Below are positions 7,401 through 48,336 of a stretch of 64,000 nucleotides of DNA, one piece after another. The stretch's first letter is position 1. Every line of letters starts with the position of its first letter. The stretch comes from Nemertoderma westbladi (Eukaryota; Animalia; Xenacoelomorpha). The position numbers and the translations under genes are program-made. The notes under the pieces were generated by a model, which saw nothing but the letters and a program-made list of their open reading frames with translations, ran no database searches and was not told the origin of the DNA. Location of the stretch: NCBI GenBank assembly GCA_032718475.1, contig JAUCBJ010002701.1:6047-70046 (forward strand), written 5' to 3'.

Positions 7401-8141
7401 GGATATATTTATATCCATTGCATCGATTTGATTTATATATAAATGACGTGCATTGTCGTGTTTTGTCTTGCCTTGTCTAACTGCCTAGCCTTCTTTATTT
7501 GGGATGGATATATTTATATCCATTGCATCGATTTGATTTATATATAAATGACGTGCATTGTCGTGTTTTGTCTAGCCTTGTCTAACTGCCTAGCCTTCTT
7601 TATTTGGGATGGATATATTTATATCCATTGCATCGATTTGATTTATGTATAAATGACGTGCATTGTCGTGTTTTGTCTAGCCTTGTTTAACTGCCTAGCC
7701 TCCTTTATTTGGGATGGATATATTTATATCCATTGCATCGATTTGATTTATATATAAATGACGTGCATTGTCGTGTTTTGTCTTGCCTTGTCTAACTGCC
7801 TAGCCTCCTTTATTTGGGATGGATATATTTATATCCATTGCATCGATTTGATTTATATATAAATGACGTGCATTGTCGTGTTTTGTCTTGCCTTGTCTAA
7901 CTGCCTAGCCTCCTTTATTTGGGATGGATATATTTATATCCATTGCATCGATTTGATTTATATATAAATGACGTGCATTGTCGTGTTTTGTCTAGCCTTG
8001 TTTAACTGCCTAGCCTCCTTTATTTGGGATGGATATATTTATATCCATTGCATCGATTTGATTTTTATATAAATGACGTGCATTGTCGTGTTTTGTCTTG
8101 CCTTGTCTAACTGCCTAGCCTCCTTTATTTGGGATGGATAT
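4449..8141. repeat. 105-bp satellite, left part (~35 copies)
   Basis: Unit CTTTATTTGGGATGGATATATTTATATCCATTGCATCGATTTGATTTATATATAAATGACGTGCATTGTCGTGTTTTGTCTTGCCTTGTCTAACTGCCTAGCCTC; highly homogeneous. Confidence 0.98.
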
Positions 8142-10339
8142 TGATAAACAACCGCGACCTCTATACTAACAGCAGAACTGTTGAACAGACAAATACCCGT
8201 TAATATCCTTCTGTCAACCTAATAAGTTCTCGTCTATCCAATAAGAGACAAAGACTGCTCTACTGTTAAGTAAAGGGGATCAGGAGCGTGCTATTACTAA
8301 ATTGTAAGGGTTGCTAAATACAAAACCGCTACTTACCGTTGGATGGCGCTAATCTGCCGTCCGCTAATATATTTTACTAAATTTACACAACTCCTGCAAA
8401 ATCGCTTGTTCCTTTCTCTACCGATTGCTCGATAGAGAGCTAACTGTTCGAATCTATGAGCCACGCGGGAATAACCAAAACAATAAACCCGAGTCGGCTC
8501 CCTAAGCTTACTTAAGACGAGTGCGAGAGGCCTTGCACTCAGAGTATTCTTACGCCTAATTCTATCACTATTAAAACACGCTATTGTCTACGTCTTTTCT
8601 AATCGCGAATACTGGGGGTTCTCTAACGTAATGTGTGAATGCGAGAATATTTAAATAATCAAATGATACAGTAATTGTTTCTACGTGGATAGTACCGCTC
8701 TGGGTCTAAACTTGCCTGCCGCTGGCTTTAGGCCAGCAAATTACTAGCGTATTGTGCGTACCGAATAGTGCGATCTAGCTGATTGCCCGCTAATGCAAAT
8801 AACCGCTCAGCGTGAATAGTTTACAGTACTCTAATTATTACCTTAGCTACTCTCCGCTATGCTGCGTACTAATTCTTAATTTTTTACTAATCAATTACAG
8901 TCACAAATATTTAACAGCGTACTAATTACTAAGAGTTCCAGAATGCGTAATTCTAATTTATCACGCAACAGGTTTCACTAGTAATAGCCTAAATTGCCGT
9001 ATTACTTTGACCTAATCAGTAACTAATTGTTGTAACTAAGAAATAGAAATCAATCAAAGAGAAAAGGGCGCCTACCTAAACATTCACAATCATAGGCACA
9101 CTTCAGTAACACACCAATCAGCGTCAACAATCACAGTTCGCAATTATGCAGTTAACTACTGTATGGCCCACAATTATGCGACTCACTATTCGTACTCCAC
9201 ACTCAACGTTGTAATACGCGCAGGCCTCTCCCGGATACATCTAGGTTTCCTAACTAACCCGATTCCTGCCCCCCTAATACTAAATAGAGACAAAACCTGG
9301 ATCATCAGCCCCCTAGTTACTGTATCGGCGAATGGTCTGCGTGTTACAGTGCAATTGCCCGCCCGCAACGGTGACTCCCCGCCAGCGTTGCCCGTCTTTG
9401 AATCCTCCGCTTTCCCTTAGTCGCTCAACCCCCCGATGTGCCCACCGCCCACTGGCACCTTAGCCCTCCATTATGCTAATAGCTACCGTAGCGGCGCATG
9501 CAAATCACAAAGTCTGACAGTCTCAGAAATCCCTTAGGATTATTGCGCAGAAAGGAATCACATAGAATCATTAATCAAAAGGTAGAAATCATAGTTCCAG
9601 TTGTAATTAGCAGTACTCGAAGGAATTAATTGAGAAACACAATCAAGAGTAATCGCACTAGCAAATCATTTCAAGAAATTAATCAAAATTAGCAAAATTG
9701 CAGAAAATACGCTAAAATATCCGTCAAAAGTGAATAGAGACAGCTCAGCAAGTACAAAGGTGATAGCAGTAAGGCTCTACCGGCACACCGCCAATTTATA
9801 GGTGATCCGGATGGGGTGATGCAATAGGGTGACGCAATCGCTCTCCTATTGGCTCTCCAGTCCGCGCTAGCATTAGACCAACCTGGAAGCAGTTAGTCCA
9901 ATAAGGAGGCCGGATTGTAGCCCTATCGCTTGCCCAAACCTCAAATTATTACCATATATGGTAATGGATCATGTCCCTGGCTGCTGAATGGCCAGGACAG
10001 CATCCCTATATGCTAGCCCTATCGATGCTAATATCAGCAAGCACAAAATCCAGGGTCCGACTAAACTTGCTACCCTGGAACTATCTACATATATCCTAAT
10101 GCAAAATTAGGTAGGTAGGGCTACATACTATACAAAATGGATGGATTCAAAATATATGGGCGTTTCGATTTCCCTATCTAAATATCATTACGTTATTATG
10201 CCTTATCTAAATATTATGCTGCATAACGGACTAATATTACATACAGTATAACGGACTAATATTGTGTACAGTATAACGACTAATATTGCATACTGCATAA
10301 TGACTAATATATGTGGATACAGCGCCATATACCGTAACA
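8142..10339 (-). repeat. 3' LTR (2198 bp)
   Basis: Direct repeat of 24871-27059; about 13 substitutions and one 9-bp indel counted by eye. Confidence 0.97.
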
Positions 10340-10348
10340 CCGCTCCAA
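10340..10348 (-). other. Short, weak polypurine tract (TTGGAGCGG) abutting the 3' LTR
   Basis: Expected position; purine-rich but short. Confidence 0.4.
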
Positions 10349-10837
10349 GGGAAATCATACAATGTTTCCCTCCAATTGTAGAAGAGTATAAGGTGATGTA
10401 TACAAAACAAAATAAATTTCTTCCAACTAATCTAAATACTTGATACTATAAATCCTACTATTTACAAAATATTGCTATAGATATTGCATAATGAATTGCA
10501 TACAAATTAAATTTACAAAATATTATCTCTCTCATTGTTAACGATTATTACATACAAATTAAATTTACAAATATTGTTTCTCGTTCGTTCTTACTACATA
10601 ATGATTACTACATACAAAATCAAATATATATAAAAAATTTGCTAGGGCAAGTGAAAGGAGTAAGCCAAACCCGCAGGTTTGTCTCCCCAATCACTTCCTT
10701 CGCCTCTCTCATAATATAAATTCAAAACAACTCAACTAGTGTATATGAGTCTAGTCGAAGATTTCTAAATGCTACAATATACATCAGAGCGACGATGATG
10801 TATATATCTAGAGTCTGTCGCCCTGTGCTATAATGTA

Positions 10838-13800
10838 TTATCGACCCGCTCCTGGGTTCTTTGGGCTCGCTCCTCTCTTTCGCCCTCTTCCCAGATACAC
10901 CAATCGTCCTCCAGTCGACTCCATTGACGGCGTCCGTGAGGCGTCACTCCCCGGAACCGGCGACGACGTTCCCTGAGCCCCGACAGATTCTCGGCTTGTG
11001 CTTCTTCCTCGGCCTCGTCCCAATTGTCGTGCTCCTGTGGTCGCTTCCGCCAACTCTTCCTTATGCAGTTGCACGTGCGCTTTTTCCGACGCTCCCTGCG
11101 CCTTGCGCTGCAACCTTTGCGCTTCTATAATAGAATGATAGTGTTCGTCCTTGACTTGACGCTTGTCTTGGACCCCTCCTCCTGGTTCCTTCCGCGAGCC
11201 TTGAGCTCCAGCGGTCGTCGCTGTGGTCGCTGCGATCCTCTGTTCCTGTATCCTCTCAGCGGTCAATGAACCCACTGGCACATGAGTCAACAAGAATTCG
11301 TTGCGGTATTGTATAGCCGCCATCCTCCAATCACCTCGCGCGCGTACCACTTTTCTAGTCTCCGTAAATACACCCTTCGTGATGCGATCGCAAATAGCAA
11401 CGAAGTTCCAGGTGTACTTGTTATCCATATTCAATTGTCTGAAGTATTCTCGGACTACGATAACTCCAGTGTTCTGTGGAAGGTCTTGAGCAGTTAGGAT
11501 GAGTTCCTGATATTGTGGTAGCGATTGTAGATATGGCTCGTACGCAACATGTGATGGGTCTACCGCCCAAAACCCATATCCCGCCTTAAATGGTAACGAA
11601 CGCATCTGCGCTTGAATATGGTAATCAGCCACACTCTCCCACTTATCTAACATCTCCCGAAGTAAGTTAGCGCTATGGTTTTGAAAGGAATCATCTCGCA
11701 GCTGACATCTCGCGCTACGATGTCCCTTTACCCCACAATATCCACATTGAGAAATGAAGACGGTGCACGTGTGAAACGAATGGTCGGTCTCATTACACCA
11801 ACGACAGACCTTATGCGCTGCCTCTACTACCGCGTCGCACGACTTTAGATTGTGCCTTGTGCTGCCGCACAATTTGCACCTACGCGCTTGTGGAAACCAG
11901 GCCCTCTCGTATATGAGGTCTCCAATCGGTTTCGCACTTCCTTCCTTCCCAATGTCTAATACGATGTCGTCCTCTCCGGTCAACGGTTGTCGATCCGGAA
12001 CAAAGTAAACATCCTCGCCCTTGTCCTCTATCTCCAATATTTCCTCCCGCGTTCGTTTCGGATATGTCTTCTCCACCGGAAGATCTACTCCGAACACCTC
12101 TACTAACGTCTCCGGCCAACCCTCCTTAACAGGTCTATCAGCCTCCGAGTGGAAGGGAGTACCAAACCCGCGGGTTTGATTCCCGAACCACTTCTCCAAA
12201 GCTTCTGGCGTCGGATACTCCATCGACGGTCGGTCTCCCAAATCTCCGATGTTCTGTCGATATACTCCTTCGAATATCGCTAATCCTCTCCTAACCATCG
12301 ACATATTCTCTAACGATTGGTTGAAGAACGGGGTTAAGAAACGCTTCATCACGTCGGATTGGATTCCCCCTTTCGAGCGAACGTATTGATCTCCTCCGAA
12401 TACCAATGGATGACGCTTCAAAACTCGCGCAACGATATCCGCTAATAAACAAGTCACCGTGTTCGACTCAAGCACCAAATAATATTGTAGCGACGCACGG
12501 GGTGGCGCGCAAATGTTCCAATACACTAACGCTTGCCGCTTGAAGTGGGATTTGAACTCCGCTCCCGGTGGGGTGTTGTATTCGCCATACGCCTCCTCGT
12601 ACTTCTTCTGCGTCTTTAACTTAAAGTCCCAATTATACAACAAGTGTGCTATAAAGCCCATACCAGTCTTGGCAGAGTTGGGATACTCCCTATAAATTCC
12701 AATATCCTGTGCCCATAGCAACAATAGCTTGGTGTCGACAAACGGTCTTGGCAATCTATCTTCCAGATCAGTCATGGTGTTGAAGTCGCTCTCCAAATCG
12801 CTCTGGACTCCCGATCCCACCTTGACGTAATCTTGGTTGAGAATAGCCTCTCTAACTTTCTTGGGTAGCATCCTGGCGTCGATACGCTCCGCTCCGTGCA
12901 TACCTCCTCGCCTGCATACCTCCAAAATCTGCTCCCTAGGATCCTTCCCTTTCCGATATTGTGTCGTTATGATGGGCTCCGGTCTCTCTCGATCCGCCCT
13001 CACACGCATAAACACATGAGTCACACCATCGGCCGCACGAATTTGAATACACTTGCTGGTCAAACATTCCTGATGGGACCCTCCTTCATTGTCGTAGAAC
13101 ATCACCCTCCAATCCTGCAGTGATTCCTCCGTTTTCCTCCACTGACGCTGAATCTCGTCTGATGGGGTCCACATGCGCTCGATAGCCTTGTGGTCATCAT
13201 ATCGGGTATAAGAACCCTTCCTCCTCAGCCACGTCTGGTCTACCTCCTCGTCATCTGGGAATGTAGCCACCGCGACCCATACCTTGATGTACTTATCCAA
13301 CCATCCGAATAGTTTGCTCTCCTTCCCCGGAGCTCCAATCTTATCCAATGTGTCGTAATCTGTGATCTGCATTGGGACATCACGCAAGAACTTCGCGCAT
13401 AAAACTTCCCGTAGACAGTCAACGTTCCAATGATCCGCCATTCTTACCATCGGCAAGAATCGTATCGCTTCTCGCGACTCCGGATGATCTACTAATATCG
13501 CAGGTTCGGTGCCGTCGGAATAATACACCGGTCGGGGTTGAGATACGACCTGTGGAACAAATCCGGTCACTCTCCTCGTCTCCTCTTGATGTCTATCCGC
13601 GGTCTTATTATACTCCGCTATCCTGTTCTCAAATAACTCTTTCGCCTTCGCCGCTCGCTCCTCCTGCCGCAACGCGTCTATGTCGTCCTGATGCTCAGGC
13701 GTGAGGCTTCTCGCTCGGTGAGGTGAAGTAAACGCAGTCCAGGGACTCGAGAGCTCCAAACCCGCGGGTTTGGTACCCGAGTCCCGCGCCGCTTCGCGCC

Positions 13801-14545
13801 GCGCCTCTAGATCCTTGTAGGCTCGGTACAGCGAAATGGCCGCTGCCGTCTCTATCAAACTGGGTGTCGAACAGGGTTTAATCTCCATATACGGATCTAA
13901 TGTCGTAACGGTCGGCGTAATGGGTCTCGGAGGTCGCTTTCCGCTAAAGTCGATACTGATCATCGGGTTGCTCATCGGGTAACCTCCCTCGTTGTATCTA
14001 AGGAACTGGTGAGCTGGACATCGCGTTAATATCGGTTCCGGATGTTGCTCGTCTAATCGGTCGGGAATCGCCACGTCTTGCTTATTCATGCATTCACCAC
14101 ACTTGTAGAACAGCTTGTACACGCTGAAGACTTTCGGCGTCTCCTGATCCTCGCCTCGAGTCCTCCGGTATAGATGCATCCCGTCGAACTGATCTCGGAC
14201 TGCAGGTAGAGGTTCTTCGTGTCGTAAATACATATTCATATGGTACAGTCGTGCGATCTCCTCATCCGGATCTGCACTAATGTCACATACGTCCAAAGCG
14301 AAGTCGTAAGGATACCGCGTGCGATATTCTCTCCGCAAAACTTCCATCCGGTCCCCCAACGCTCTCATTCTTTCCCTCCGTAATTCCTTATCATAAGTCG
14401 GCTTATATTTTCCATTTAGCTCCATCACGGACCGCCCATGGTAGTAAACGTTAGAGTCTTTACATCCTGGTCGCGCGAATGGTAGCTCCGCCTCCTCTCT
14501 GGCAGTAAATCCTCTGCGCGGTTGCGCTCTAATATCCCTCTCCAT
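10838..14545 (-). CDS. BEL accessory ORF2, ~1235 aa, triple CCHC zinc-knuckle protein of unknown function
   Basis: Uninterrupted ORF with first ATG at 14545 (the track starts at TTG 14578). Knuckles CKLCGSTRHNLKSC, CRWCNETDHSFHTC and CGYCGVKGHRSARC lie at 11705-11878; basic RG-rich tail; no obvious signal peptide or TM helix. Confidence 0.9.
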   Translation of the reverse strand: MERDIRAQPRRGFTAREEAELPFARPGCKDSNVYYHGRSVMELNGKYKPTYDKELRRERMRALGDRMEVLRREYRTRYPYDFALDVCDISADPDEEIARLYHMNMYLRHEEPLPAVRDQFDGMHLYRRTRGEDQETPKVFSVYKLFYKCGECMNKQDVAIPDRLDEQHPEPILTRCPAHQFLRYNEGGYPMSNPMISIDFSGKRPPRPITPTVTTLDPYMEIKPCSTPSLIETAAAISLYRAYKDLEARREAARDSGTKPAGLELSSPWTAFTSPHRARSLTPEHQDDIDALRQEERAAKAKELFENRIAEYNKTADRHQEETRRVTGFVPQVVSQPRPVYYSDGTEPAILVDHPESREAIRFLPMVRMADHWNVDCLREVLCAKFLRDVPMQITDYDTLDKIGAPGKESKLFGWLDKYIKVWVAVATFPDDEEVDQTWLRRKGSYTRYDDHKAIERMWTPSDEIQRQWRKTEESLQDWRVMFYDNEGGSHQECLTSKCIQIRAADGVTHVFMRVRADRERPEPIITTQYRKGKDPREQILEVCRRGGMHGAERIDARMLPKKVREAILNQDYVKVGSGVQSDLESDFNTMTDLEDRLPRPFVDTKLLLLWAQDIGIYREYPNSAKTGMGFIAHLLYNWDFKLKTQKKYEEAYGEYNTPPGAEFKSHFKRQALVYWNICAPPRASLQYYLVLESNTVTCLLADIVARVLKRHPLVFGGDQYVRSKGGIQSDVMKRFLTPFFNQSLENMSMVRRGLAIFEGVYRQNIGDLGDRPSMEYPTPEALEKWFGNQTRGFGTPFHSEADRPVKEGWPETLVEVFGVDLPVEKTYPKRTREEILEIEDKGEDVYFVPDRQPLTGEDDIVLDIGKEGSAKPIGDLIYERAWFPQARRCKLCGSTRHNLKSCDAVVEAAHKVCRWCNETDHSFHTCTVFISQCGYCGVKGHRSARCQLRDDSFQNHSANLLREMLDKWESVADYHIQAQMRSLPFKAGYGFWAVDPSHVAYEPYLQSLPQYQELILTAQDLPQNTGVIVVREYFRQLNMDNKYTWNFVAICDRITKGVFTETRKVVRARGDWRMAAIQYRNEFLLTHVPVGSLTAERIQEQRIAATTATTAGAQGSRKEPGGGVQDKRQVKDEHYHSIIEAQRLQRKAQGASEKAHVQLHKEELAEATTGARQLGRGRGRSTSRESVGAQGTSSPVPGSDASRTPSMESTGGRLVYLGRGRKRGASPKNPGAGR

Positions 14546-15299
14546 TATGCCTCGCGTATATACATATATATATCCCAATAAGTGCCGTTACGTAACCAAT
14601 TACACTGTGGGTAAATCAGTTAGATGTCGCCGAAAGACAGACCTCCCGAACCCCCCCGCCTTCCAGCAGTTCAGGTTTGACTCTCTAGATCCCGTCTCTT
14701 CCTAACTAACTATCCTCTAACCTATTCCCATGCATAGCGCAAAAACTTTGGAGATAAACTGGCCGTGACCAACTCACTTTTTGATGCCCAAACTACTCCC
14801 ATTACTCGTACTAAACTACAGTAGTTAGAAAGGACCATAGCCACAATACCCAACTATACCAAACCCACAGGTTTGATAATCGAACATCACACATCCTGCA
14901 AACTACTGAGTGGGGTCCATGTACGCCTCTGGTGCTACTAACCTTTAGCACCTTAGTTGCACTGTTGGCACCAATCCGTGGAAGTTGCTAAACTCAATTT
15001 ACACTCCTACGTAATATAGCCGTCACCATGGTTTCTAAATGCTATTTTCCAGGCTTCACGACTTTTCAAATTACTGTTTTCTATAGACGAATTCTAAAAC
15101 GCGTCTATACACAGCGTCTGGAATTGTCTTGGGTTCACTTTTCTAATTTTAAAATTTTCTAATTTTCCAAAATTTTGAAATAAAATTTTGTTTTGATACC
15201 CACTAGACAAAACTCAACGCAAATCACCACAACCCCGCTCCTATGCATTTCCTTGTATTTGCATACGAGGAATGCATACGAAGTGAGTTGCGTCCAATA

Positions 15300-18200
15300 C
15301 TAATTCTGTTTTGAGACAGGAGACAAATTATAATCTCCCGTCTCGATACGTGTCTCCTCTAATAACACAATATCTTGGACCGGTCGGTCCAAGGTGTGCA
15401 AACCATTAGTTTTACACTTTTTTGGGTGCGGACACTTGCACCTAATTTTCACAGTGACTGTGCGCACTATGTTTTGCACGTCTGGGTGTGTGTGCAAGAT
15501 GACACCTGTCTCCCAATACTTTCTCTTGACAATCGGCTCGGTTATCAATACGTAATCTCCCCTTTGGAGACTCCGAACCGTTTTGTACCACTTTGTTCTG
15601 GTGGATATGGTGGGAAGATAATATTCCCGCCAATATTCCCAGAATGTGTACGCTACTAATTGTGTCACCTTCCAGCTTTTACGACTATATAGGTCGGCAC
15701 TAACGGGTTCTGATGCCGGCACAAGAAATGCTGGACTCTGCATTAACAAATGATTCGGCGTTAATGCAACACCGTCTGGCAACATAGCTATCGGCCTCGA
15801 GTTTAGGGTATGCTCGATTTCAATGAAAGCTGTAACCAGTTCGTCGTCGGTAAGTTGTTTATTTACAGGCAATGTTTTGGCAATGGCCTGTTTTACAGAG
15901 CGAACTAAACGCTCCCAACTTCCTCCTCTCCAAGGACTTTCTGGAGTATTAAATCTCCACTCTACTCTTTGCGGCAAAAGTGCTGCAGAAATTTCCTTAT
16001 TCTGTGCTGCTTTATGAGCCGCGTTTAACTCGCTGTTCCCTCCGACAAAGTTTGTACCCTTATCGGAGTAGAACGCCTTTACTAGTCCTCTCCTGGCCAT
16101 AAATCTCTTTAAGGCCAGGAGCAGAGATTTGGTCGACATGTCTGCCACACGCTCAATGTGTATAGCTCTACTAGCCATACATGTCAGTAGCAGACCCCAT
16201 CGCTTGTGGGTCAGCCATCCACTCTTTGCCTCAATCGGACCAAAACAGTCCACCCCTGTGTTCGTAAAGGGTGGGTCATATGCCTGCACTCTCGCTTCCG
16301 GGAGTTCAGCCATCTCCTGTTCCAATACTCTGGCGTTCACCCTCTTGCAAACCAGACAGGCGTCGTACATAGTGCCTACTGCCCTGATTGGCTGCAATAG
16401 AATGAATCGCTGTCTCGCTGCCGACAAACAGTGTAACTTTCCCGCGTGATGCAACCTCTTGTGTATATCCCATAGAATCGCTCTTTGCAATTCTATTGGG
16501 TGACTAGGGATTATCACTGGGAACCGAAACTGTGAGTTTATGTCGACAGTCTGGATTCTCGATCTATGACAAATCAAACCCTTATGGATTAATAGACTCC
16601 ATTTTCTAAGGGGTTTATAGAGAACTGGTCGTTGAGCCGATAATAGATGGAATTCTTTGGGGAAGGCACACATTTGATAATGCTTCAAATGCTTTAATTC
16701 CGCTTGATCAATCTCATCCTCTGTCAGAGGTTGTTTCAATTTCCGAATTCGCTCACTATTGGTGCTCAATGGTTCTCTCAAATGTTCCGAATGTTTTAAA
16801 CAAAGGTACAAAATGTATCGGCTTAACCACGCAGTTCTTTTACAAATTGTCAGCCAAGAGGCAGACGAATTTAGTAATTTGTCATAAACACTGCATGACA
16901 CTAATGCCAGCGACGGTTGTCCGCTAACTAATGGAAGTTTCGAATCCAAACCCGCAGGTTTGGAAACCAAAGGCTCCATTGTGTCGGTCATTTTCTGTCC
17001 GTCACTTACTAACTGTGACTGTCGTCTAGTCTGTAAGGGTGGTTTTATGTCATAACTTACCCTTCCGGACCTAGTAGTCACGTAAGTCTGTTGGTCTGAC
17101 AGGTCTCCGGGCCGCTCCAATGACTCTTCAGGCCGCTCCAATGACTCTTCAGGCCGCTCCAATGACTCTTCAGGCCGCTCCAATGACTTAAGTTTGGCTT
17201 TAGACTTCGACTTAGAGACTTTCTCCACTTTGACTTCTGCATCTTCAGGCATCGGATTGGTCACTATCTTTAGTCGCTCTGGCCAATGTTCCTGTGTCCT
17301 CGTTAGAAAATCAGGTCCATGCAACCAAAACTCCTGCGACTCTTCCTGACAGAATTCCGCCGGCATTGCACCTCTCGAAGTTATGTCGGCCGGGTTCAAC
17401 ACTCCCGGACAATGTCTCCATTGTTCCTTCGTCGAAAAATCAACGATCTGAGCGCGTCTATTGGCCACAAATGTCTTTAGTGCAATATTGTCGGCCGCAA
17501 TGTATACTAACACCAAGGATGCGTCCGTCCAATAGAATAAGGTCAGTGTCGTGTCTAACTCCTCAGTTATCTGCTTACTTACCTCGACCGAAACTACTGC
17601 CGCCTGTAACTCTGCACGAGGGACAGTCATGTATTTGACCGGCATTGTCTTTGATCTAGAAGTCACAAAGGCCGTCTCAAATTTGTCCTGACTTACCTCT
17701 CGGCGAAGGTAGGCTACCATACCAAAGCCGGTGTCACTTGCATCACTAAATAGGTGGAGCTCTAAATCAGCTGGGAATACCAGCTGATTCGGAAAGTAGG
17801 AACGGGGTACATCTATATTTTTCAATAGATGTAACTCGGCTTCCCACTCCCTCCACTGCTTTGCATGTATAGGAGATATTGGTTCGTCCCACTCTAAGTC
17901 GGACAACCAAATTTTCCTCATGCACGCTCGTGCCTGTAATATAACCGGACTGATAAAGTTCATCGGGTCAAATAGTCTACTTAATGTCGATAAGCAAATC
18001 CTCTTAGTCAAAACTTTGTCTGGGCTACTGGGCTCAAATCTAACTCTTACCTGGAACTTATCTGAGTTCGGGTTCCAAGCGAGTCCCAGTACTCGCGCCA
18101 TGGGGATTGGTTCTACCCCCAATTCTATGTCTCCGCTCCCGCGATCTTTCACCGGGAACGATTCTAATAGGGCCTCCGAGTTCGTAGTGAACTTGGTCAG

Positions 18201-21200
18201 AGGAAATCCCCCTGTAGCCAAGCACTCCTGCAGGCCGTGAGCCACTTCTATGGCTTGTTCCGCTGTGTCCTTGGACACCAATCCGTCGTCCATGTAGAAG
18301 TTTCTCAAGATGGACTCGATAACCTCTACTGGATACTTACCAATCTGGGCTGTTGCCGTTTTCTTTAAAACGAACAGCGTGCCATTCGGACTATCGCGGG
18401 CGCCAAATATCCTAACGTACATTTGGTATGTAACCACTGGGCCGGATAAGTCTTCATTCTCGTACCAGAGAAAGCGAAGGCTATCCTGGTCTGCCTTACA
18501 GGCTCTTACCTGGTGGAACATCGCCTCGATGTCACAAGTAAATGCGAATCGCCGCTGTCTAAAACGTAACAATATTCCAATCAAATAGTTATTCAGGTTG
18601 GGACCATCCATCAACTCTGAATTCAGGGACATACCCCTATAGACTGCTGCGCAGTCGTTGACTACTCGGACTTTGTCTGGCTTGTCGGGGTGAGTCACAT
18701 AGTGGTGTGGAAGGTAATAAGTCTGGTCTGTCACTAAGTCAGGGTCCTCTACCTTCCCAGCAAATCCCTTGGCGAAATAGTTGTTGATCTGGGCGCAATA
18801 CTTCTCCCTAATGTCTGGATTCTTCAACAACCGAGCCCTTACTCCGTTCAATCTTTTCAAGGCTAAGTTATAGTTGTTCTCCAACTTAGGTGGTTGTCGA
18901 CGCCACAACATTCCAACTTCAAAATGTCCAGTCGGTAGTAGACGTATGGTGTCTTCCATCATCTCCAACGACCGTTTCTCATCAGTAGACATGGCTAGGT
19001 CATATCCACCGGGTTCCATTGCGTCCCTATCCAGCCATTCGACGGTTCTGGCTCCTGTCTCGAGGTCCTGGCGTATCAATTCCTTCTGTAGTTCCTCCTC
19101 ACTGTATTGGAAAATGTCGAGGTCTCGATATTTAGCCACCTGACCCTCCACTATGTCGGTATAAGTCAAAACGTTAGTCAAATAGGTAGCGTGGGCCGCT
19201 GAACCAGACCCACGGGTCTGATAACAGTAGTCCTCGGGTTCACTATCTGTCCGGTCGTTATGAAGTGGTTCCGACAACCTAACATTATCGGGAATCAACT
19301 CCTCGTCCGACTCGCTAAAGTCACTATAGTGGTCAATACAGGTTCTCCTAAACTCGTCTATGTCTGGTGGTTCTACTAACGGTGGTTGAGTTATAGGCTG
19401 TAGTTCGTCGTATCTGTTCATTGGCTTGTCGCCACCTGTAAACTCATAAGACATGGGTACTCGTGTATACCAACCTAGTATGGTCCTATGGGCATGTGGT
19501 CCATTGACATGCGGCTCAGCTGGTCTCGTTTCCCATATTTGGTGTGCGATCAGCTGTTCTGCACCAATCAACATAGAAACATTCCTATAACCTACCTGGT
19601 GTCTGGGTATCCTGAGCTTGTCAAAATACTCCTGTGCTATGGGACTCATCGGCGGCACCTTACCTAACTGCCTGCCGAATCCCTTCATAGCTAGACACTT
19701 AAATCCGTCCAATGGCAAAGCTTTCCGTTCTTGTCGAGTGTGTTGGTCTCTCGGAAGTAGGGAGTCTAGTTCTACAGATATCCTGTGTCCCTTGAGGTCA
19801 CCTACCCCGTGCATAGACTTCAACTCTATTTGGATCTCCTCGGCGTCCTGGAAGCTAGAAACGGCTCTCACCACTTCCTCGTCGATATACGATAATGTGG
19901 ACGCAGTGTCCAACATCACATATATCCGCTTCGATCCCTTATCGCCAGTGAGTTTCACCGGAATCACGCTGAATATTTCCGACGTGGCCGATGATAAATA
20001 CGTCCGCGCGCTGGTCGATGAACTATCCGCGGTGAAACCTTGGCAGGTCACTTCTCTCGCGCTCGACTCGCCATCCTCATCCGACGAACCTGGTTGGTAA
20101 CCATCGTCCTGGATGCCAGTGTACGTATTCCTCCTTATCGATACGGGTTCTTTGCTCCCCTTCCTGTGAGGATTTCGCTGTAAGTAATGGTCCGTTGGGG
20201 TATGGAAATCCGCATGTAGCAACTTGTGATGTAGTCTGCCGCATTCCATGCATCCGTCCTTGCTGTTTGGGCACTGCCGCCGTACATGACCTGGCGCAAG
20301 ACAAGCCCAACAGGTGTCCAACGTCCGCACTTGAACTCTTCTTTGTTCCGAATTTAATTCTTTGAACCGTCTGCAACTATCTAACTTATGGTCGTCAGAT
20401 CTTACCTCCTTTAGTAAACAGTATTGGCAACCTACAAATCCATCCGGCAACTCCTGTTGCTTTAACCTAGGTCTATCTAACCGCTCACCTGACCATACTC
20501 GCGAGTCTGATCTAAAGGCTGGGGTACTCGAATTATATCTGTCTACTGAGTTAAATGTCACAGTAGTCCTGTCATCGTCAAAACTTACCATAGACTTACC
20601 GGTAACAGGTTTAGACTCCCTCATATTCTCTTCTGAGAAGTTTGATTTCATCTCTGCTACTGCGTCTGTGGCTATCATGTCATGAATATGCTGAAGTGTC
20701 AATACTTTACCTTGGCTCTCCAACTTATTCTCTAATTTGCGCCATTTCTGTCGATAACGCATGTTTAAACGTCTTATTACGCTCTTTAAAACTTCGGCGT
20801 GATCACCATGATGAGGTAGATTCACCGTCCTCAAGATGTCCAATGCGTTCGAAATAGCGTTCGCTAAGTTCAACAGCTCTAACGGAGTTGTAATCCTTCC
20901 GCCCTTACCCAAGTCTTCTACTATCGACTGCGCCATCTTGGTTTTATTCCCGTAGATGTCACTAAGCGTCTTCATCGCTAACTCAAATGCCCTTTCATTG
21001 CCGACGAAGTTATCAGCAATGGCTCTAGGTTCTCGATGGTGCATCTGAAGCAAATAGTTGAACTTCTCGTTGGGAGTAAAGGTGCTGTTGGTTAGCTGCT
21101 CGTCGACATAGGTTTTGAAAGTCCTCCAATGCTTATGGTTGCCCATAAACTTCTGGGGTTGTTGCGTCGGCAGTCCTTGCCTAGCAGCAAACTTACCTAT

Positions 21201-23675
21201 GTCCCTAAGGGTTGCGTCGTTCCGGGTTAACAAATGGTTTAGTTCCGCAGGGTTGTTAAGTCTGGTCCTTTCCCGGTGGTTCCAACTTACCTGCTCCGCG
21301 TCCGTCCTTCTTTCCTTATAGTTTCGGGACTTCTGACGTCTCATGTCTTCCTCTTCATCGCTTGACTCGGTGTCAGTCCTTAGCGCTCGCGATGGTTTGC
21401 GCGCCGAGGCCCTGATCCAAGCCTCCTCAATAAATTTCTCGGCCGAATTTTCGAAATTGGGATTATGGATATTCGGGACAGGCGTCCTTACCTGAGGTCT
21501 ATGTGGTATAGTCTCCTCCGATATGCGTACTCGTTGACTATGCTGGACTTTATCTAACTCAGGCCTGCTAGGATTAGAATTACTTCTTACCTGGGCTGCT
21601 TCCTTTAACCGTAGGTTGCTAAGCATGTCCGTTATAGGTTGGATGTGCGGCGATATAGCTTGCGCTAAACTAGCACTTAACTCATCCCTCGTAATAAATT
21701 CCTGGCTAGGGTTCTGTTGTATAGTCGGCTCTATCTGAGTAATCATCCGCTGTCTCTCATATGATCCCTCTTCCGGTTTAACCCGGAAGTTCTCCGTCGA
21801 ACTGGGTCGGCGCTCCGTCCGCGTATTCCAAACCCGCGGGTTCGGTTCGCCCAATACTCGGCCCGTTGGAGTCTCTTCTCTAAATTCTCCATTGTCGCGT
21901 TCGGTATACAGTGGTGCGGTGTTCCGATGACGTAGATCCTGGGCGATGGGTGAAGCACCAATACCAACTGGCGTGCGATATGTAGAGAACGGTTTAGCGA
22001 TCCGTGTACTCGTAATAGCTGGACCGGGTATAGGAATTCTGGTCGTCGTCGACTCGCGTATGGTCGGAGTTCTCGCTTCCTGTTCGGCCTTCTGCAGTGC
22101 GAACAGTTCTCGCAACTCGGTCCCTACACTCGCCCCACATTCTTCGATCATCCGCATCCCCTTCTCGGCGATTTCATTCGCCTTCCTAGTCCGTTCTTCG
22201 CTCTCTAAACTTAATCTCGCACTTTCCAACTGTGCCAGTTTACGTTCTTCTTCTTCCCTCGCTCGTCGTGCTGCGCTCTCTTCTTCCACTCGCGCCTTCT
22301 CTTCATATAATGCGCGTCTTCTTTTCTCGATCTCGAGTTCGCGTTCCTTGCGCTCGCGTTCGAGTTGAAGCTCGCGTTCCTTCTGTTCCCGCTCGAGTTC
22401 CTTGCGCTCGCGTTCGGCTTGAAGCTCGAGTTCCTTGCGCTCGCGTTCGGCTTGAAGCTCGCGCTCCTTGCGCTCGCGTTCGGCTTGAAGCTCGCGCTCC
22501 CTTTGCTCACGTTCCGCCCGTTCGCGCTTACTTATTTCTTCCAACTCTCGCAACTCCGCATCCAACTTTCGCGTGCGCTCGCGTTCCCGCTCGGCTTCCT
22601 TCCGTGCTTCCGATGCACGCAAAACTTCCGCCTGTTGTTCGTCCAGTCGGCGTCTTCTCTCCTCCGCCGAGTTGTGCGAAACAAGGGATCTAGCACATAT
22701 AACCTTACCTCGCGCGTGACTAACCTGGGAATCGCCGCTGTCTCTGGATGCGTCGTCGGGTGGAGTCAACGTCCTCTGTTGGATGTTCTCCGTCGTCGGT
22801 AGCACCTGGCCTGGTACCACCACTCCATTCTGCATCAGCCAGCTAGTAACTTCCCTTTGATACCGGCGCTCCTCTTTATCTTGGATCTCTTCTCGCTTCA
22901 CTAAGTCTCTCAACTCTGCGTCACTCACTTGAGTCGCCTGCGTTTGTGATGCCCATAGCAGCCAGTTCTCCGTCCTAACTCGTCGGAATCGCTCCGATAA
23001 CTCGCGGTGCTCCAACAAGGCTGCTAAAACCCTGTCGTAAATCCTCGTCGCCACGTCGCTCGACTGAGACTCTACTGCCTTCTTCGCTAGGACTGCAAGC
23101 TCCTCCGTCTGCTTGAATAACGCTGAGTTATATCCTCTTCTAATCTCTGCTAACTCTACCCTCCCGATGTTCGCTGAGTCGGCTAACATTTTCCTTACCT
23201 TGTCCGCCGTCCGGGTTATATGTCCGGCATGCGCGCGAAGTTTCTTCTTTATCGCAATATCAAGTTCTCTCTCGCTTACCTGACTTACACTTGGTGGACT
23301 TGAAGGATTATTTCGGGAACTACGGGTACTCCTTACAGCCGTCGGGACCACGGCACTTACCATACCCACAGGTCTGGAAACCGGGCTCCGGGCTCTCGCT
23401 TCTGCTACACTACCCTCCCTATCACTCACCTCTGTCCGGGCTGCCGTACAGTCCTTCCTTACAGTAGCGGTAGGGGATCCTAATACTATTACTTGAGGTT
23501 GTTCTTCTTCCTCACTAGTCACTGTCTCGTCCTCCTGTTCACTTACGTCAGCGTCACTCGCTGCGTCGTCATAGTCGGCATTGTCGTCAACAGTTATGTT
23601 TACGCTATCGTCAGTCGGCGGTCCAGCCGCCGTCTCGTAGCTGTCCTCTAGTGCCTCCTTGTCTGAGACACTCAT
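15300..23675 (-). CDS. BEL/Pao Gag-Pol polyprotein, 2791 aa
   Basis: Gag core (FMGNHKHWRTF..EKFNYL) and BEL-type triple Cys/His boxes ending CMECGRLHHKLLH; protease LDTAS; RT YLPHH/FYMDD; RNase H LFSDAS/PRAEL/WTD/NPAD; integrase HHCC, VDCFGP, SDKGTNF, GGSWERLV; C-terminal FWEYWREYYL. Confidence 0.98.
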   Translation of the reverse strand: MSVSDKEALEDSYETAAGPPTDDSVNITVDDNADYDDAASDADVSEQEDETVTSEEEEQPQVIVLGSPTATVRKDCTAARTEVSDREGSVAEARARSPVSRPVGMVSAVVPTAVRSTRSSRNNPSSPPSVSQVSERELDIAIKKKLRAHAGHITRTADKVRKMLADSANIGRVELAEIRRGYNSALFKQTEELAVLAKKAVESQSSDVATRIYDRVLAALLEHRELSERFRRVRTENWLLWASQTQATQVSDAELRDLVKREEIQDKEERRYQREVTSWLMQNGVVVPGQVLPTTENIQQRTLTPPDDASRDSGDSQVSHARGKVICARSLVSHNSAEERRRRLDEQQAEVLRASEARKEAERERERTRKLDAELRELEEISKRERAEREQRERELQAERERKERELQAERERKELELQAERERKELEREQKERELQLERERKERELEIEKRRRALYEEKARVEEESAARRAREEEERKLAQLESARLSLESEERTRKANEIAEKGMRMIEECGASVGTELRELFALQKAEQEARTPTIRESTTTRIPIPGPAITSTRIAKPFSTYRTPVGIGASPIAQDLRHRNTAPLYTERDNGEFREETPTGRVLGEPNPRVWNTRTERRPSSTENFRVKPEEGSYERQRMITQIEPTIQQNPSQEFITRDELSASLAQAISPHIQPITDMLSNLRLKEAAQVRSNSNPSRPELDKVQHSQRVRISEETIPHRPQVRTPVPNIHNPNFENSAEKFIEEAWIRASARKPSRALRTDTESSDEEEDMRRQKSRNYKERRTDAEQVSWNHRERTRLNNPAELNHLLTRNDATLRDIGKFAARQGLPTQQPQKFMGNHKHWRTFKTYVDEQLTNSTFTPNEKFNYLLQMHHREPRAIADNFVGNERAFELAMKTLSDIYGNKTKMAQSIVEDLGKGGRITTPLELLNLANAISNALDILRTVNLPHHGDHAEVLKSVIRRLNMRYRQKWRKLENKLESQGKVLTLQHIHDMIATDAVAEMKSNFSEENMRESKPVTGKSMVSFDDDRTTVTFNSVDRYNSSTPAFRSDSRVWSGERLDRPRLKQQELPDGFVGCQYCLLKEVRSDDHKLDSCRRFKELNSEQRRVQVRTLDTCWACLAPGHVRRQCPNSKDGCMECGRLHHKLLHADFHTPTDHYLQRNPHRKGSKEPVSIRRNTYTGIQDDGYQPGSSDEDGESSAREVTCQGFTADSSSTSARTYLSSATSEIFSVIPVKLTGDKGSKRIYVMLDTASTLSYIDEEVVRAVSSFQDAEEIQIELKSMHGVGDLKGHRISVELDSLLPRDQHTRQERKALPLDGFKCLAMKGFGRQLGKVPPMSPIAQEYFDKLRIPRHQVGYRNVSMLIGAEQLIAHQIWETRPAEPHVNGPHAHRTILGWYTRVPMSYEFTGGDKPMNRYDELQPITQPPLVEPPDIDEFRRTCIDHYSDFSESDEELIPDNVRLSEPLHNDRTDSEPEDYCYQTRGSGSAAHATYLTNVLTYTDIVEGQVAKYRDLDIFQYSEEELQKELIRQDLETGARTVEWLDRDAMEPGGYDLAMSTDEKRSLEMMEDTIRLLPTGHFEVGMLWRRQPPKLENNYNLALKRLNGVRARLLKNPDIREKYCAQINNYFAKGFAGKVEDPDLVTDQTYYLPHHYVTHPDKPDKVRVVNDCAAVYRGMSLNSELMDGPNLNNYLIGILLRFRQRRFAFTCDIEAMFHQVRACKADQDSLRFLWYENEDLSGPVVTYQMYVRIFGARDSPNGTLFVLKKTATAQIGKYPVEVIESILRNFYMDDGLVSKDTAEQAIEVAHGLQECLATGGFPLTKFTTNSEALLESFPVKDRGSGDIELGVEPIPMARVLGLAWNPNSDKFQVRVRFEPSSPDKVLTKRICLSTLSRLFDPMNFISPVILQARACMRKIWLSDLEWDEPISPIHAKQWREWEAELHLLKNIDVPRSYFPNQLVFPADLELHLFSDASDTGFGMVAYLRREVSQDKFETAFVTSRSKTMPVKYMTVPRAELQAAVVSVEVSKQITEELDTTLTLFYWTDASLVLVYIAADNIALKTFVANRRAQIVDFSTKEQWRHCPGVLNPADITSRGAMPAEFCQEESQEFWLHGPDFLTRTQEHWPERLKIVTNPMPEDAEVKVEKVSKSKSKAKLKSLERPEESLERPEESLERPEESLERPGDLSDQQTYVTTRSGRVSYDIKPPLQTRRQSQLVSDGQKMTDTMEPLVSKPAGLDSKLPLVSGQPSLALVSCSVYDKLLNSSASWLTICKRTAWLSRYILYLCLKHSEHLREPLSTNSERIRKLKQPLTEDEIDQAELKHLKHYQMCAFPKEFHLLSAQRPVLYKPLRKWSLLIHKGLICHRSRIQTVDINSQFRFPVIIPSHPIELQRAILWDIHKRLHHAGKLHCLSAARQRFILLQPIRAVGTMYDACLVCKRVNARVLEQEMAELPEARVQAYDPPFTNTGVDCFGPIEAKSGWLTHKRWGLLLTCMASRAIHIERVADMSTKSLLLALKRFMARRGLVKAFYSDKGTNFVGGNSELNAAHKAAQNKEISAALLPQRVEWRFNTPESPWRGGSWERLVRSVKQAIAKTLPVNKQLTDDELVTAFIEIEHTLNSRPIAMLPDGVALTPNHLLMQSPAFLVPASEPVSADLYSRKSWKVTQLVAYTFWEYWREYYLPTISTRTKWYKTVRSLQRGDYVLITEPIVKRKYWETGVILHTHPDVQNIVRTVTVKIRCKCPHPKKCKTNGLHTLDRPVQDIVLLEETRIETGDYNLSPVSKQN
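17110..17188. repeat. In-frame 21-bp tandem repeat (LERPEES x~4) in the RH-IN linker
   Basis: Tandem GGCCGCTCCAATGACTCTTCA. Confidence 0.9.
22335..22500. repeat. In-frame ~33-bp repeats (ERERKERELQA) in the Gag coiled coil
   Basis: Repeated CCTTGCGCTCGCGTTCGGCTTGAAGCTCG. Confidence 0.85.
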
Positions 23676-24858
23676 AGTCTAAATAATGTTTTGCTTTCCG
23701 GCAAAATATATCTCGCAAAGTTCGAGATATAATTATAATTTAACCGAAAATACGGTCAAATTATTTGTCTAATAATCAGTTAGTCCAAATGTCAAAATAA
23801 ATTCGCAATGCAATATTGTGAATTTAATGGGGTATATAGTTATAGCAAATACTAGCAGAATATTTAAACAAAAATATTATTATTTAGCTACTATATAGCA
23901 TTAAATACCGGTATGACACAAAATAACTTTGAATCTAATACAAAATATTCAAAATATACTTGCCGCCCGAATATTTCTAATTTCATATATATATAGCTCT
24001 AATCAACGTAATTTTAATTTCAAATATTATATGTATCCACTAGCGCGTGGCTACATCTTCGGGTTGCGACTCTCTCTAACTCTCTCTCTAACTTGAGCGA
24101 TTCAAAAAACCATGGCCGGCTAAACCTAAATATCCTAACTAATAAATTGAGTTCAGCTTCGCAGTTAAACAACCGATAATTTTTTACTGCTTCCACAAAC
24201 ACACTGGCGCCAACAGAACAACTAACCTTGTTTGCTGTGAGATTCCACATCCGCGTCCAAAGATTCAGGCCCTTCGCTGATTGCAAACCGAACCCGCAGA
24301 CCCACACGAACCCCAAACTCAGAAGTTCCGTCTTGCCATGTATCTCCAGATGGTATAAAATAACTAAGCGGTTACCTAACATACCGGTACAAAACTCTAG
24401 AATTTTACAAATAATTTTGACCGAAACTGAATTCTCGCAAACCTAGCTAATAATTTTCAAAAAACTTACTAATTACAGTTTGCCCTAAGGCCTAAGGAAC
24501 TGCTGTATTCGCAATTAGCAAAAACGCACTACCGTACATTCACTGTATGCAGTACAGTAAGTAAAACAGTACACCAACTTAACAGCCTAATGATACTGTG
24601 TGTGGTACGGCAAAACAAATGTCCCTTCTACCGTACGCAGTAACAGCAATCAGCCTAATGTACTACTGTACTATTGTACGCAGCCAGTGAATACAGTAAT
24701 CTAAACTAACAGCCTAAAAATACACTATGTGTTCTACCGTACGCTAGCCTATAGCCTACAGCAGACGATCACGTGCTCCAACTTATTACTTAATACTGTG
24801 ATACTACTAATCAGCCTAAGAATACTCTATTACTGTACGCTACAGCCTACAGCAACAA

Positions 24859-24870
24859 TGCGCGTATTAC
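24859..24870 (-). other. Non-tRNA primer-binding-site position (GTAATACGCGCA), complementary to an LTR 12-mer
   Basis: Directly follows the 5' LTR and lacks TGG; perfect inverted repeat with 25940-25951 (and 9211-9222). Confidence 0.6.
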
Positions 24871-27059
24871 TGATAAACAACCGCGACCTCTATACTAACA
24901 GCAGAACTGTTGAACAGACAAATACCCGTTAATATCCTTCTGTCAACCTAATAAGTTCTCGTCTAACCAATAAGACACAAAGACTGCTCTACTGTTAAGT
25001 AAAGGGGATCAGGAGCGTGCTATTACTAAATTGTAAGGGTTGCTAAATACAAAACCGCTACTTACCTTTGGATGGCGCTAATCTGCCGTCCGCTAATATA
25101 TTTTACTAAATTTACACAACTCCTGCAAAATCGCTTGTTCCTTTCTCTACCGATTGCTCGATAGAGAGCTAACTGTTCGAATCTATGAGCCACGCGGGAA
25201 TAACCAAAACAATAAACCCGAGTCGGCTCCCTAAGCTTACTTAAGACGAGTGCGAGAGGCCTTGCACTCAGAGTATTCTTACGCCTAATTCTATCACTAT
25301 TAAAACACGCTATTGTCTACGTCTTTTCTAATCGCGAATACTGGGGGTTCTCTAACGTAATGTGTGAATGCGAGAATATTTAAATAATCAAATGATACAG
25401 TAATTGTTTCTACGTGGATAGTACCGCTCTGGGTCTAAACTTGCCTGCCGCTGGCTTTAGGCCAGCAAATTACTAGCGTATTGTGCGTACCGAATAGTGC
25501 GATCTAGCTGATTGCCCGCTAATGCAAATAACCGCTCAGCGTGGATTGTTTACAGTACTCTAATTATTACCTTAGCTACTCTCCGCTATGCTGCGTACTA
25601 ATTCTTAATTTTTTACTAATCAATTACAGTCACAAATATTTAACAGCGTACTAATTACTAAGAGTTCCAGAATGCGTAATTCTAATTTATCACGCAACAG
25701 GTTTCACTAGTAATAGCCTAAATTGCCGTATTACTTTGACCTAATCAGTAACTAATTGTTGTAACTAAGAAATAGAAATCAATCAAAGAGAAAAGGGCGC
25801 CTACCTAAACATTCACAATCATAGGCACACTTCAGTAACACACCAATCAGCGTCAACAATCACAGTTCGCAATTATGCAGTTAACTACTGTATGGCCCAC
25901 AATTATGCGACTCACTATTCGTACTCCACACTCAACGTTGTAATACGCGCAGGCCTCTCCCGGATACATCTAGGTTTCCTAACTAACCCGATTCCTGCCC
26001 CCCTAATACTAAATAGAGACAAAACCTGGATCATCAGCCCCCTAGTTACTGTATCGGCGAATGGTCTGCGTGTTACAGTGCAATTGCCCGCCCACAACGG
26101 TGACTCCCCGCCAGCGTTGCCCGTCTTTGAATCCTCCGCTTTCCCTTAGTCGCTCAACCCCCCGATGTGCCCACCGCCCACTGGCACCTTAGCCCTCCAT
26201 TATGCTAATAGCTACCGTAGCGGCGCATGCAAATCACAAAGTCTGACAGTCTCAGAAATCCCTTAGGATTATTGCGCAGAAAGGAATCACATAGAACCAT
26301 TAATCAAAAGGTAGAAATCATAGTAATTAGCAGTAATCGAAGGAATTAATTGAGAAACACAATCAAGAGTAATCGCACTAGCAAATCATTTCAAGAAATT
26401 AATCAAAATTAGCAAAATTGCAGAAAATACGCTAAAATATCCGTCAAAAGTGAATAGAGACAGCTCAGCAAGTACAAAGGTGATAGCAGTAAGGCTCTAC
26501 CGGCACACCGCCAATTTATAGGTGATCCGGATGGGGTGATGCAATAGGGTGACGCAATCGCTCTCCTATTGGCTCTCCAGTCCGCGCTAGCATTAGACCA
26601 ACCTGGAAGCAGTTAGTCCAATAAGGAGGCCGGATTGTAGCCCTATTGCCTGCCCAAACCTCAAATTATTACCATATATGGTAATGGATCATGTCCCTGG
26701 CTGCTGAATGGCCAGGACAGCGTCCCTATATGCTAGCCCTATCGATGCTAATATCAGCAAGCACAAAATCCAGGGTCCGACTAAACTTGCTACCCTGGAA
26801 CTATCTACATATATCCTAATACAAAATTACGTAGGTAGGGCTACATACTATACAAAATGGATGGATTCAAAATATATGGGCGTTTCGATTTCCCTATCTA
26901 AATATCATTACGTTATTATGCCTTATCTAAATATTATGCTGCATAACGGACTAATATTACATACAGTATAACGGACTAATATTGTGTACAGTATAACGAC
27001 TAATATTGCATACTGCATAATGACTAATATATGTGGATACAGCGCCATATACCGTAACA
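24871..27059 (-). repeat. 5' LTR (2189 bp)
   Basis: Direct repeat of 8142-10339. Confidence 0.97.
26487..26625 (-). promoter_or_regulatory. Candidate LTR Pol II promoter
   Basis: TATAAAT at 26520-26514, Inr-like TTACT with A at 26490 (30 nt downstream), and CCAAT boxes near 26570 and 26620. Confidence 0.5.
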
Positions 27060-42740: not shown

Positions 42741-43356
42741 CCATTCAAATATATAATAATTTAATTAAATAAATAAAAATTATAAATGAAATAAATTAAT
42801 AAATAATAATTGAAATAAATAAATAAATAATAATTGATATAAATAAATAAATAAATAAATAAAATGAATAAATAAATAATTGAAATAAAGATATAAAATA
42901 TGTTGTAGTTATCTTCATTAATCATATTTTGTTGTCTTTTTCCAACATTATAATTTGTTTGACGTTTGAATTGAATTTTAGGGTACCTGTTTCTGATAAA
43001 AAGTAAAAAAAAAATAATTTTTTTAACTGATTCTGGATCACCATTTAATCGCGATTTCACAACTAAAATCGAAATTGCAAGATCTCTTTTAGTACTCGAG
43101 TTATAGCTGATGCCTGTCTGTCAAAATCCGACAAAATTAATAATCCCACGCATTGTACAGTTTTCGCTATAAGATTTTGAAGTGAAATTTCATTTCTAAT
43201 GTATGTTTAAATGTACATAATAGTAAAATTTATTAGAGACTTACTGAACTATTAGTTTACATTACTCAGTATTCAATAATGAATTGAGTCCAGTAAAAGT
43301 TTTATTTTATACTTTTGGAATTTGAACTTTAATGAAGGAGCAGAATAATTGATATC

Positions 43357-44135: not shown

Positions 44136-44148
44136 GTGAGTACCGGTA

Positions 44149-48246: not shown

Positions 48247-48336
48247 GTGGAACAAGGTACAAGCAACAAGGAATTTAGAACACAATAATTTTATTGAATG
48301 GGATAATCTTTTAGGCTCGTAAGGCCAAGGAACGCG

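Follow-up and report, generated by a model that had tools for sequence, protein, structure and literature searches.

A 64,000-nucleotide stretch of Nemertoderma westbladi DNA (contig JAUCBJ010002701.1, positions 6,047 to 70,046; hereafter the window, numbered from its first letter) contains a full-length BEL/Pao long terminal repeat (LTR) retrotransposon with a large accessory open reading frame (ORF), which we call ORF2, downstream of pol. The question raised by this locus is what such a gene does for its carrier. We found that residues 471-720 of ORF2 very probably form a DEDDy-type 3'-5' exonuclease domain, as judged from profile and structure-model comparisons, and that the primer-binding site (PBS) of the element is complementary to its own LTR. 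Our tentative answer is that ORF2 trims the element's own RNA.

ORF2 is an intact reading frame without envelope features

A preliminary description of this DNA had reported an intact ORF of ~1235 codons in the env position, on the pol strand and between near-identical LTRs, with three zinc knuckles and an arginine-glycine (RG)-rich tail towards its end and with neither a signal peptide nor a transmembrane (TM) helix. All of these features were recovered here, and the parts of ORF2 are as follows, with (-) denoting the minus strand.

10838..14545 (-): accessory ORF (ORF2), 1235 amino acids, no internal stop
13136..14545 (-): N-terminal ~470 amino acids, no assigned family
12386..13135 (-): predicted DEDDy-type 3'-5' exonuclease domain, residues 471-720, with D485, E487, D583, Y689 and E693
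11705..11878 (-): three CX2CX4HX4C zinc knuckles, residues 890-947, starting at 890, 914 and 934
11567..11704 (-): family-conserved block that follows the knuckles, with a helix and an aromatic-G-F motif, common to 6/6 homologues
10871..11020 (-): RG/basic low-complexity tail, GRGRGR at residue 1176 and GRGRKR at residue 1219

ORF2 lies on the same strand as gag-pol and starts 755 bp downstream of that ORF, inside the LTRs. A 6-codon upstream ORF (14565-14545 (-)) overlaps the ORF2 start codon via the sequence TAATG and resembles a stop-restart signal. The knuckles are positioned ~290 amino acids short of the C-terminus, with a linker of ~170 amino acids between them and the exonuclease domain, and because Gag carries knuckles itself they represent an additional set. 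A C-x2-C-x23-C-x2-H motif is present at residue 149 in the N-terminal part of the protein; residues 1-470 were without a family match, and the N-terminal 460 amino acids gave no usable match in the Atlas.

Neither of the Env hallmarks that we looked for in ORF2, a signal peptide and a C-terminal TM anchor, was found. The N-terminus is charged and the highest 19-residue Kyte-Doolittle mean in the protein is 1.34, membrane helices usually lying at ~1.6 on this scale. No Env or Gag match was obtained for those parts of ORF2 that were amenable to modelling and, as regards the possibility of a second Gag, the domain that precedes the knuckles is modelled as an exonuclease fold.

Identification of the predicted exonuclease domain

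When ORF2 residues 1-1120 were scanned with HMMER against 1.84 billion representatives, six unnamed homologues of 514-715 amino acids were found (E 1e-9 to 8.5e-4), matching ORF2 over residues 557-723 and 833-1034. A profile built from these six proteins alone recovers ORF2 in both regions (E 2.5e-40), and DEDDy motifs are visible in their N-terminal domain. Comparison of a domain profile with the PDB gave EXD2 (E 0.002), Egalitarian (E 0.04) and WRN (E 1.0), and the top Atlas match was a euglenozoan cluster combining PF01612 with zf-CCHC (0.85), which we treat as a lead only. Word-index searches gave 0/6762 candidates with ORF2 as the query and 0/7997 with alignment A2, and no match to ORF2 was found among viral contigs.

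An AlphaFold (AF2) model of residues 471-720, produced with five homologues, had a mean predicted local distance difference test score (pLDDT) of 63 and a predicted template modelling score (pTM) of 0.61, and its three N-terminal strands are ordered as in an RNase H-like fold. Foldseek searches with this model returned NrnC, EXD2, RNase D, Nibbler, Egalitarian and Klenow (best E 5.9e-4), while in a VIA fold search of 48,161 chains all 50 of the 50 rows were DnaQ-like exonuclease domains (best Z 11.5, root-mean-square deviation (rmsd) 3.8, 158 residues aligned). An earlier AF2 model (601 amino acids, from an untrimmed alignment) had a pLDDT of 39.6, and Foldseek returned nothing with it at E<=0.001. 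We conclude that residues 471-720 very probably constitute a DEDDy 3'-5' exonuclease domain. The preliminary description had recognised no motif in the ~900 residues upstream of the knuckles; residues 1-470 are still without an assigned family, but for residues 471-720 AF2 and Foldseek indicate a DnaQ-like exonuclease fold and no Env or Gag fold.

In the AF2 model D485 and E487, the D-x-E pair of the ExoI motif, lie on strand 1. Provided that the start of the VIA alignment is ungapped, they align with D313 of RRP6 and with Asp80 and Glu82 of Trypanosoma brucei RNase D (TbRND, PDB 7c42), which are catalytic in that enzyme (PMC7797062). The ExoII aspartate, D583, is invariant in the 6/6 rows of alignment A5.

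A motif-based DNA scan identified 123 loci, three of which have the knuckle block: homologues P0001 and P0005 themselves and one new fragment. No pol was seen beside these three loci, each record being just 0.6-1.1 kb in length. In P0001 the knuckle-plus-aromatic block is duplicated and the exonuclease domain is degenerate, with D-x-K at ExoI.

ORF2 is conserved among copies of the element

In public DNA runs from the host the entire element recurs as a repeat family, ORF2 included. For the selection test we used assembled contigs and their best-supported rows over one ~100-codon stretch picked for its coverage by divergent contigs. Family variants across residues 449-528 comprised 35 synonymous and 5 non-synonymous changes (best 40 of 49), against a neutral expectation for the synonymous fraction of 0.20-0.28. 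This corresponds to a rough ratio of non-synonymous to synonymous rates (dN/dS) of 0.04-0.06 (p<1e-14), and we conclude that ORF2 is, as far as the sequences of these copies indicate, under purifying selection within the family.

Across the whole element, seven near-fixed differences fall in ORF2 (5 non-synonymous and 2 synonymous, among the best 40 of 777), as expected from drift in this one copy, and the five active-site positions and the knuckle ligands are untouched by them. There were no indels in ORF2 among the 12 listed of 107, yet some copies have a 335-bp ORF2 deletion. Contig depth was lower over ORF2 than over pol, a difference that was not used since depth is no copy number. One run, presumed to be RNA, has contigs covering parts of ORF2, and these were not counted for or against expression. 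ORF2 is not bounded by terminal repeats or a target site duplication (TSD) of its own: the best match between its flanks is a shared 17-nt hairpin, and the next best is a 13-nt AT-rich match lying well within both spacers. Purifying selection, the lack of nested termini and the lack of an Env or Gag match in the modelled parts all bear out the earlier view of a non-Env, nucleic-acid-binding accessory gene.

The carrier is an oversized BEL/Pao element

The features of the carrier are listed below.

8142..27059 (-): full-length BEL/Pao LTR retrotransposon, 18,918 bp, interrupting a 105-bp satellite array
8137-8141 and 27060-27064: 5-bp TSD GATAT on both flanks of the element
24871..27059 (-): 5' LTR, 2189 bp, TG...CA
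8142..10339 (-): 3' LTR, 2198 bp, TG...CA
CCAAT-like box near 26570 and TATAAA at 26520, 5' LTR (-): putative promoter elements
15300..23675 (-): gag-pol ORF, 2791 amino acids; Gag PF03564 with its own knuckles, PF18701

The two LTRs are 99% identical (13 substitutions, 9 gap columns), and by this sequence measure the element is young. The TATAAA at 26520 is the only one in the LTR. The gag-pol ORF has intact-looking enzyme motifs in the order Gag, protease (LDTAS), reverse transcriptase (YMDD), Pao RNase H region (PF05380) and integrase. Assignment to BEL/Pao follows from the direct TG...CA LTRs, the short TSD, the knuckles of Gag, this domain order and the Pao-type Pfam domains (PF05380 at E 6e-39, with PF03564 and PF18701). 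Pol has 560 relatives at E<=1e-30, and PF05380 is present in 120/120 among the matches listed; the closest relatives of Gag-Pol are BEL/Pao proteins of ~42% identity, and those that are named come from marine invertebrates. BEL/Pao elements are usually 4.2-10 kb in size with LTRs of 0.2-1.2 kb (PMC3118150), so that an 18.9-kb element with 2.2-kb LTRs is larger than this range and about twice the usual size. The length of the 2791-residue polyprotein is added to by a long E/R-rich coiled-coil repeat in Gag (22336-22517 (-)) and by a 7-amino-acid tandem repeat in Pol between RNase H and integrase (17110-17188 (-)). Searches of the element for tRNA genes and Rfam families found none. The satellite that it splits occupies 4449-8141 and 27060-35081 of the window, in 35 and 76 copies with 96-99% matches.

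The primer-binding site is complementary to the LTR

The preliminary description had also remarked on an atypical PBS and on dispersed hairpins, and both are real. These and the other cis elements that we located are as follows.

24859..24870 (-): PBS position, 12 nt right after the 5' LTR end; start not TGG
25940..25951 (-): LTR site complementary to the PBS, 12/12 nt, candidate self-primer; repeated in the 3' LTR at 9211-9222
10665..23377 (-): dispersed 18-nt hairpins, eight in all, each with a YGYG loop; start positions 23377, 21845, 19221, 16963, 14876, 13773, 12179 and 10682
10340..10372 (-): polypurine tract position; short purine run only, after an imperfect hairpin whose fold is not significant (z -1.4)
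25060..25068 (-): candidate splice donor for an ORF2 message, the sole AG/GTRAG consensus in the LTR plus 5' untranslated region
14605..14625 (-): candidate branch point with a CAG acceptor, 59 nt upstream of the start codon of ORF2, one of six candidates in the spacer

The PBS is not of the tRNA type that is typical of, though not obligatory for, BEL/Pao elements, as judged by its lack of a TGG start and not by comparison with host tRNAs. Its pairing with the LTR site runs exactly up to the LTR boundary and gives a duplex of -20.6 kcal/mol; a 12-nt complement arose by chance in 1/2000 LTR shuffles and at 0/2043 mock sites. With ~570 nt between the sole LTR TATAAA and the complement downstream of it, priming by the 5' end of the transcript, as in Tf1, does not fit simply. 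Two other possibilities were examined. The first, a tRNA-like structure lying upstream of the primer site in the LTR, was rejected on its folding score (z -0.22), and a primer formed at a splice junction was ruled out, the complement being contiguous in the LTR and lacking a preceding AG.

The eight hairpins are spaced at 1.1-2.6 kb through the internal region on the sense strand, occur in all three codon phases, and include two within ORF2. The pattern is absent from the LTRs and from the other 45 kb of the window, the mean expected by chance being 0.02; the pattern had, however, been defined on these same hairpins. Folding z-scores were below -2 for 6/8 of them. In our reading a hairpin made in RNA is favoured over a DNA palindrome because one copy has a compensatory pair, G-U pairing on the sense strand is seen in four, and 7/7 loop changes from CGCG, read on the same strand, are C-to-T. 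Strong local RNA folds (z -5 to -6.6, from 25 shuffles) are also present on the minus strand in the leader (24560-24860), immediately before the gag ATG (23700-23780), and immediately after the pol stop (15221-15300) and the ORF2 stop (10759-10838); packaging or translation signals are possible.

Possible roles of ORF2

Primer processing was one of the options raised in the preliminary description, and it gains support from the 3'-5' exonuclease fold modelled for ORF2 and from the pairing of the PBS with the LTR of the same element. The reading that we favour, though we put it at clearly less than an even chance, is that ORF2 is an RNA-trimming enzyme whose substrate is RNA of the element itself, its likeliest task being the maturation of a self-encoded primer. 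ORF2 would be translated from a spliced message, using the candidate donor near 25065 and the acceptor at 14605; its knuckles and RG tail would hold RNA of the element, with the YGYG hairpins as possible contact sites; an LTR-derived RNA end would base-pair with the 12-nt PBS; and the exonuclease would trim the unpaired 3' tail back to the duplex, so that reverse transcriptase would start from a 3'-OH placed precisely at the LTR boundary. In TbRND the zinc-finger domain similarly provides RNA binding and enhances 3' trimming (PMC7797062). The narrower claim, that element RNA ends are the substrate and primer trimming the main job, is somewhat unlikely in our judgement. A complete tRNA-free kit, in which an LTR-encoded primer and evenly spaced hairpins on a 17-kb RNA are served by an exonuclease that its knuckles guide and that cuts the primer back to the exact LTR boundary, is an unlikely conjunction; if it existed, it would give retroelement-borne DEDDy nucleases a function and would constitute a priming route distinct from tRNA and from Tf1.

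Several observations weigh against RNA trimming by ORF2. The main weakness is that the exonuclease and the PBS are connected solely by their co-occurrence in one family, and the same applies to the single system of ORF, hairpins and PBS that the preliminary description had proposed. ORF2 searched alone against Pfam, NCBIfam and PDB sequences gave no exonuclease match, the PDB returning just a Lin28 knuckle (E 0.59), and neither AATAAA nor ATTAAA was found in the LTR. At ExoIII, Y689 is present but E693 stands where Asp is canonical; Glu occupies this position in 3/6 rows of A5 (two of the five homologues as well as ORF2) and Asp in 3/6, and efficient cleavage by TbRND requires the matching Asp230 (PMC7797062). 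The register of ExoI is ambiguous by sequence, since untrimmed alignments shift it by 28 residues to non-acidic letters (in 3/9 trials of one test); a block-profile test gave no decision, and the AF2 model is partly circular because its input alignment was trimmed to the acidic register. The acidic register is favoured, in turn, by the pLDDT of 39.6 of a model on the alternative register, though that model was also longer, and by the matches of a more distant family, whose long contigs align over 12957-13102 only, a block starting at the ExoI motif. With D485, E487, D583 and Y689 in place but Glu693 as the fourth acid, activity is therefore likely but unproven, and we think it probable on the model that the domain is catalytically active.

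An active nuclease might instead act in counter-defence, shielding the element by degrading or mis-trimming host PIWI-interacting or small interfering RNAs, or element RNA that triggers silencing. Nibbler, which trims small RNAs, is among the fold neighbours of ORF2 together with EXD1 and Egalitarian, and ORF2 has a large N-terminus of no assigned family. TbRND degrades small guide RNAs (PMC7797062) and a silencing-related role was raised by Rodriguez et al. for the retroelement exonucleases discussed below (PMC5408684). Counter-defence leaves the odd PBS unaccounted for, however, and dispersed hairpins suggest that the RNA recognised in cis is the element's own; we regard this role as unlikely, if the best placed of the alternatives.

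A dead or weak domain could, as in Egalitarian or EXD1, serve as an adaptor that binds the dispersed hairpins and exports, localises or packages the ~17-kb RNA. Such a pseudo-nuclease would be consistent with the Asp-to-Glu change at the fourth site, with the loss of the ExoI acids in the alternative register, with the RG tail, with eight sense-strand hairpins that span the whole internal region, and with fold matches that include Egalitarian-BicD structures with stem-loop RNAs. On the other hand, the remaining four active-site residues are all present, residues 481-503 are free of non-synonymous variants (best 40 of 49), D-x-E is retained by 4/5 homologues that reach ExoI, and the hairpins could equally serve as Gag sites. 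This reading, too, seems to us improbable.

We think it less likely still that the nuclease edits complementary DNA (cDNA), stripping mismatched or non-templated 3' nucleotides as proofreading, or as clean-up before strand transfer and integration, in an oversized element. Family A polymerases, which were found among the VIA matches, use this fold for proofreading, the element exceeds the usual size as described above, and DEDDy genes also occur in 40-kb Terminons (PMC5718144, PMC6431247), but ORF2 is separate from reverse transcriptase rather than fused to it, and its knuckles and RG tail point to RNA. Finally, that ORF2 is mere cargo, a recently captured host gene or nested element with no role for its carrier, is very improbable and largely refuted by the synonymous excess: the homologues could be cellular genes and some copies have the 335-bp deletion, but ORF2 is intact, intronless, selected among copies and covered throughout by family contigs, lacks flanking terminal repeats other than the shared hairpin, contains two of the eight hairpins and has a third-codon-position GC content close to that of gag-pol (0.55 against 0.50-0.52).

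Comparison with known systems

DEDDy-exonuclease ORF3s are known in the bdelloid rotifer LTR elements Juno and Vesta and in Athena/Terminons (PMC5408684, PMC5718144, PMC6431247), and some Dada transposases also contain a DEDDy domain (PMC3706591). In the rotifer ORF3s the motif is altered (DEED) and exonuclease activity was described as yet to be demonstrated (Rodriguez, Kenefick and Arkhipova, 2017; PMC5408684). ORF2 resembles them, by description and not by phylogeny, in its env position downstream of pol, its RNase D-like DEDDy domain, its lack of a TM domain and its altered catalytic motif. It differs in that the change is at the fourth acid, that the protein co-occurs with a self-complementary PBS, that it has 1235 residues with three CCHC knuckles, a 470-residue N-terminus and an RG tail, and that its carrier is BEL/Pao; the words 'BEL', 'CCHC' and 'zinc knuckle' are absent from the available portion of PMC5408684.

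The EXD2, WRN-exo, Nibbler (mut-7), Egalitarian and NrnC group provides the best profile and fold matches of residues 471-720, at 8-16% identity, and the top rows are tied, so that no subfamily can be assigned. TbRND is alike in architecture, with a DEDD exonuclease followed by several RNA-binding zinc fingers for 3' trimming, and matches the ORF2 model in VIA with Z 8.7 and rmsd 4.2 over 173 aligned residues at 16% identity. It is, however, a cellular enzyme of ~380 amino acids with four fingers and a U-rich preference (PMC7797062), whereas ORF2 has the ~170-residue linker and large extensions.

Tf1 and Tj1 are primed by the 5' end of their own mRNA (PMC4600332). As in these self-priming elements, the PBS described here is complementary to the element's own LTR, over 12/12 nt, rather than to a tRNA; the present element differs in the location of the complement ~570 nt past the only LTR TATAAA and in its BEL/Pao affiliation. 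We know of no extra exonuclease encoded by Tf1.

Roo, Tas and Cer7 are BEL/Pao elements that bear env, and ORF2 shares the position of their extra ORF; unlike them it has no signal peptide or TM helix, and a predicted nuclease fold replaces the glycoprotein. An env gene is carried by few BEL/Pao elements (PMC3118150). In a literature search whose coverage left out most subscription journals and Repbase reports, we found no report of a BEL/Pao exonuclease ORF or of BEL/Pao self-priming. What is new at this locus is that the carrier is BEL/Pao, that the protein has an architecture with three knuckles common to six unnamed proteins and one fragment, and that a candidate self-primer occurs together with hairpins. 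ORF2 extends enzyme-type ORF3s to BEL/Pao, where extra ORFs are usually taken as env, and indicates a family of exonuclease-knuckle proteins that has no name so far, public data containing at least seven members besides ORF2. This young multi-copy family combines an intact, selected gene for a predicted nuclease with a candidate substrate, the 12-nt LTR-PBS duplex, and candidate binding sites, the eight hairpins, and makes the function of retroelement-borne DEDDy exonucleases directly testable in vitro.

Other features of the window

Broken non-LTR retrotransposons with reverse transcriptase and AP-endonuclease matches are present at 54389-58039 (-) and 39621-42404 (-), the former holding a perfect 14-copy 38-bp repeat at 57475-58014. 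A rhodopsin-family G protein-coupled receptor reading frame (43336-44139 (+), PF00001, E 4e-20) adjoins a 14-bp array at 44148-44639, and a short tandem array at 44797-44917 consists of self-complementary 20/40-bp units. Other satellites occupy 1-369 and 1628-2791 (both 37 bp), 48327-53990 (63 bp) and 59711-63989 (45-bp units).

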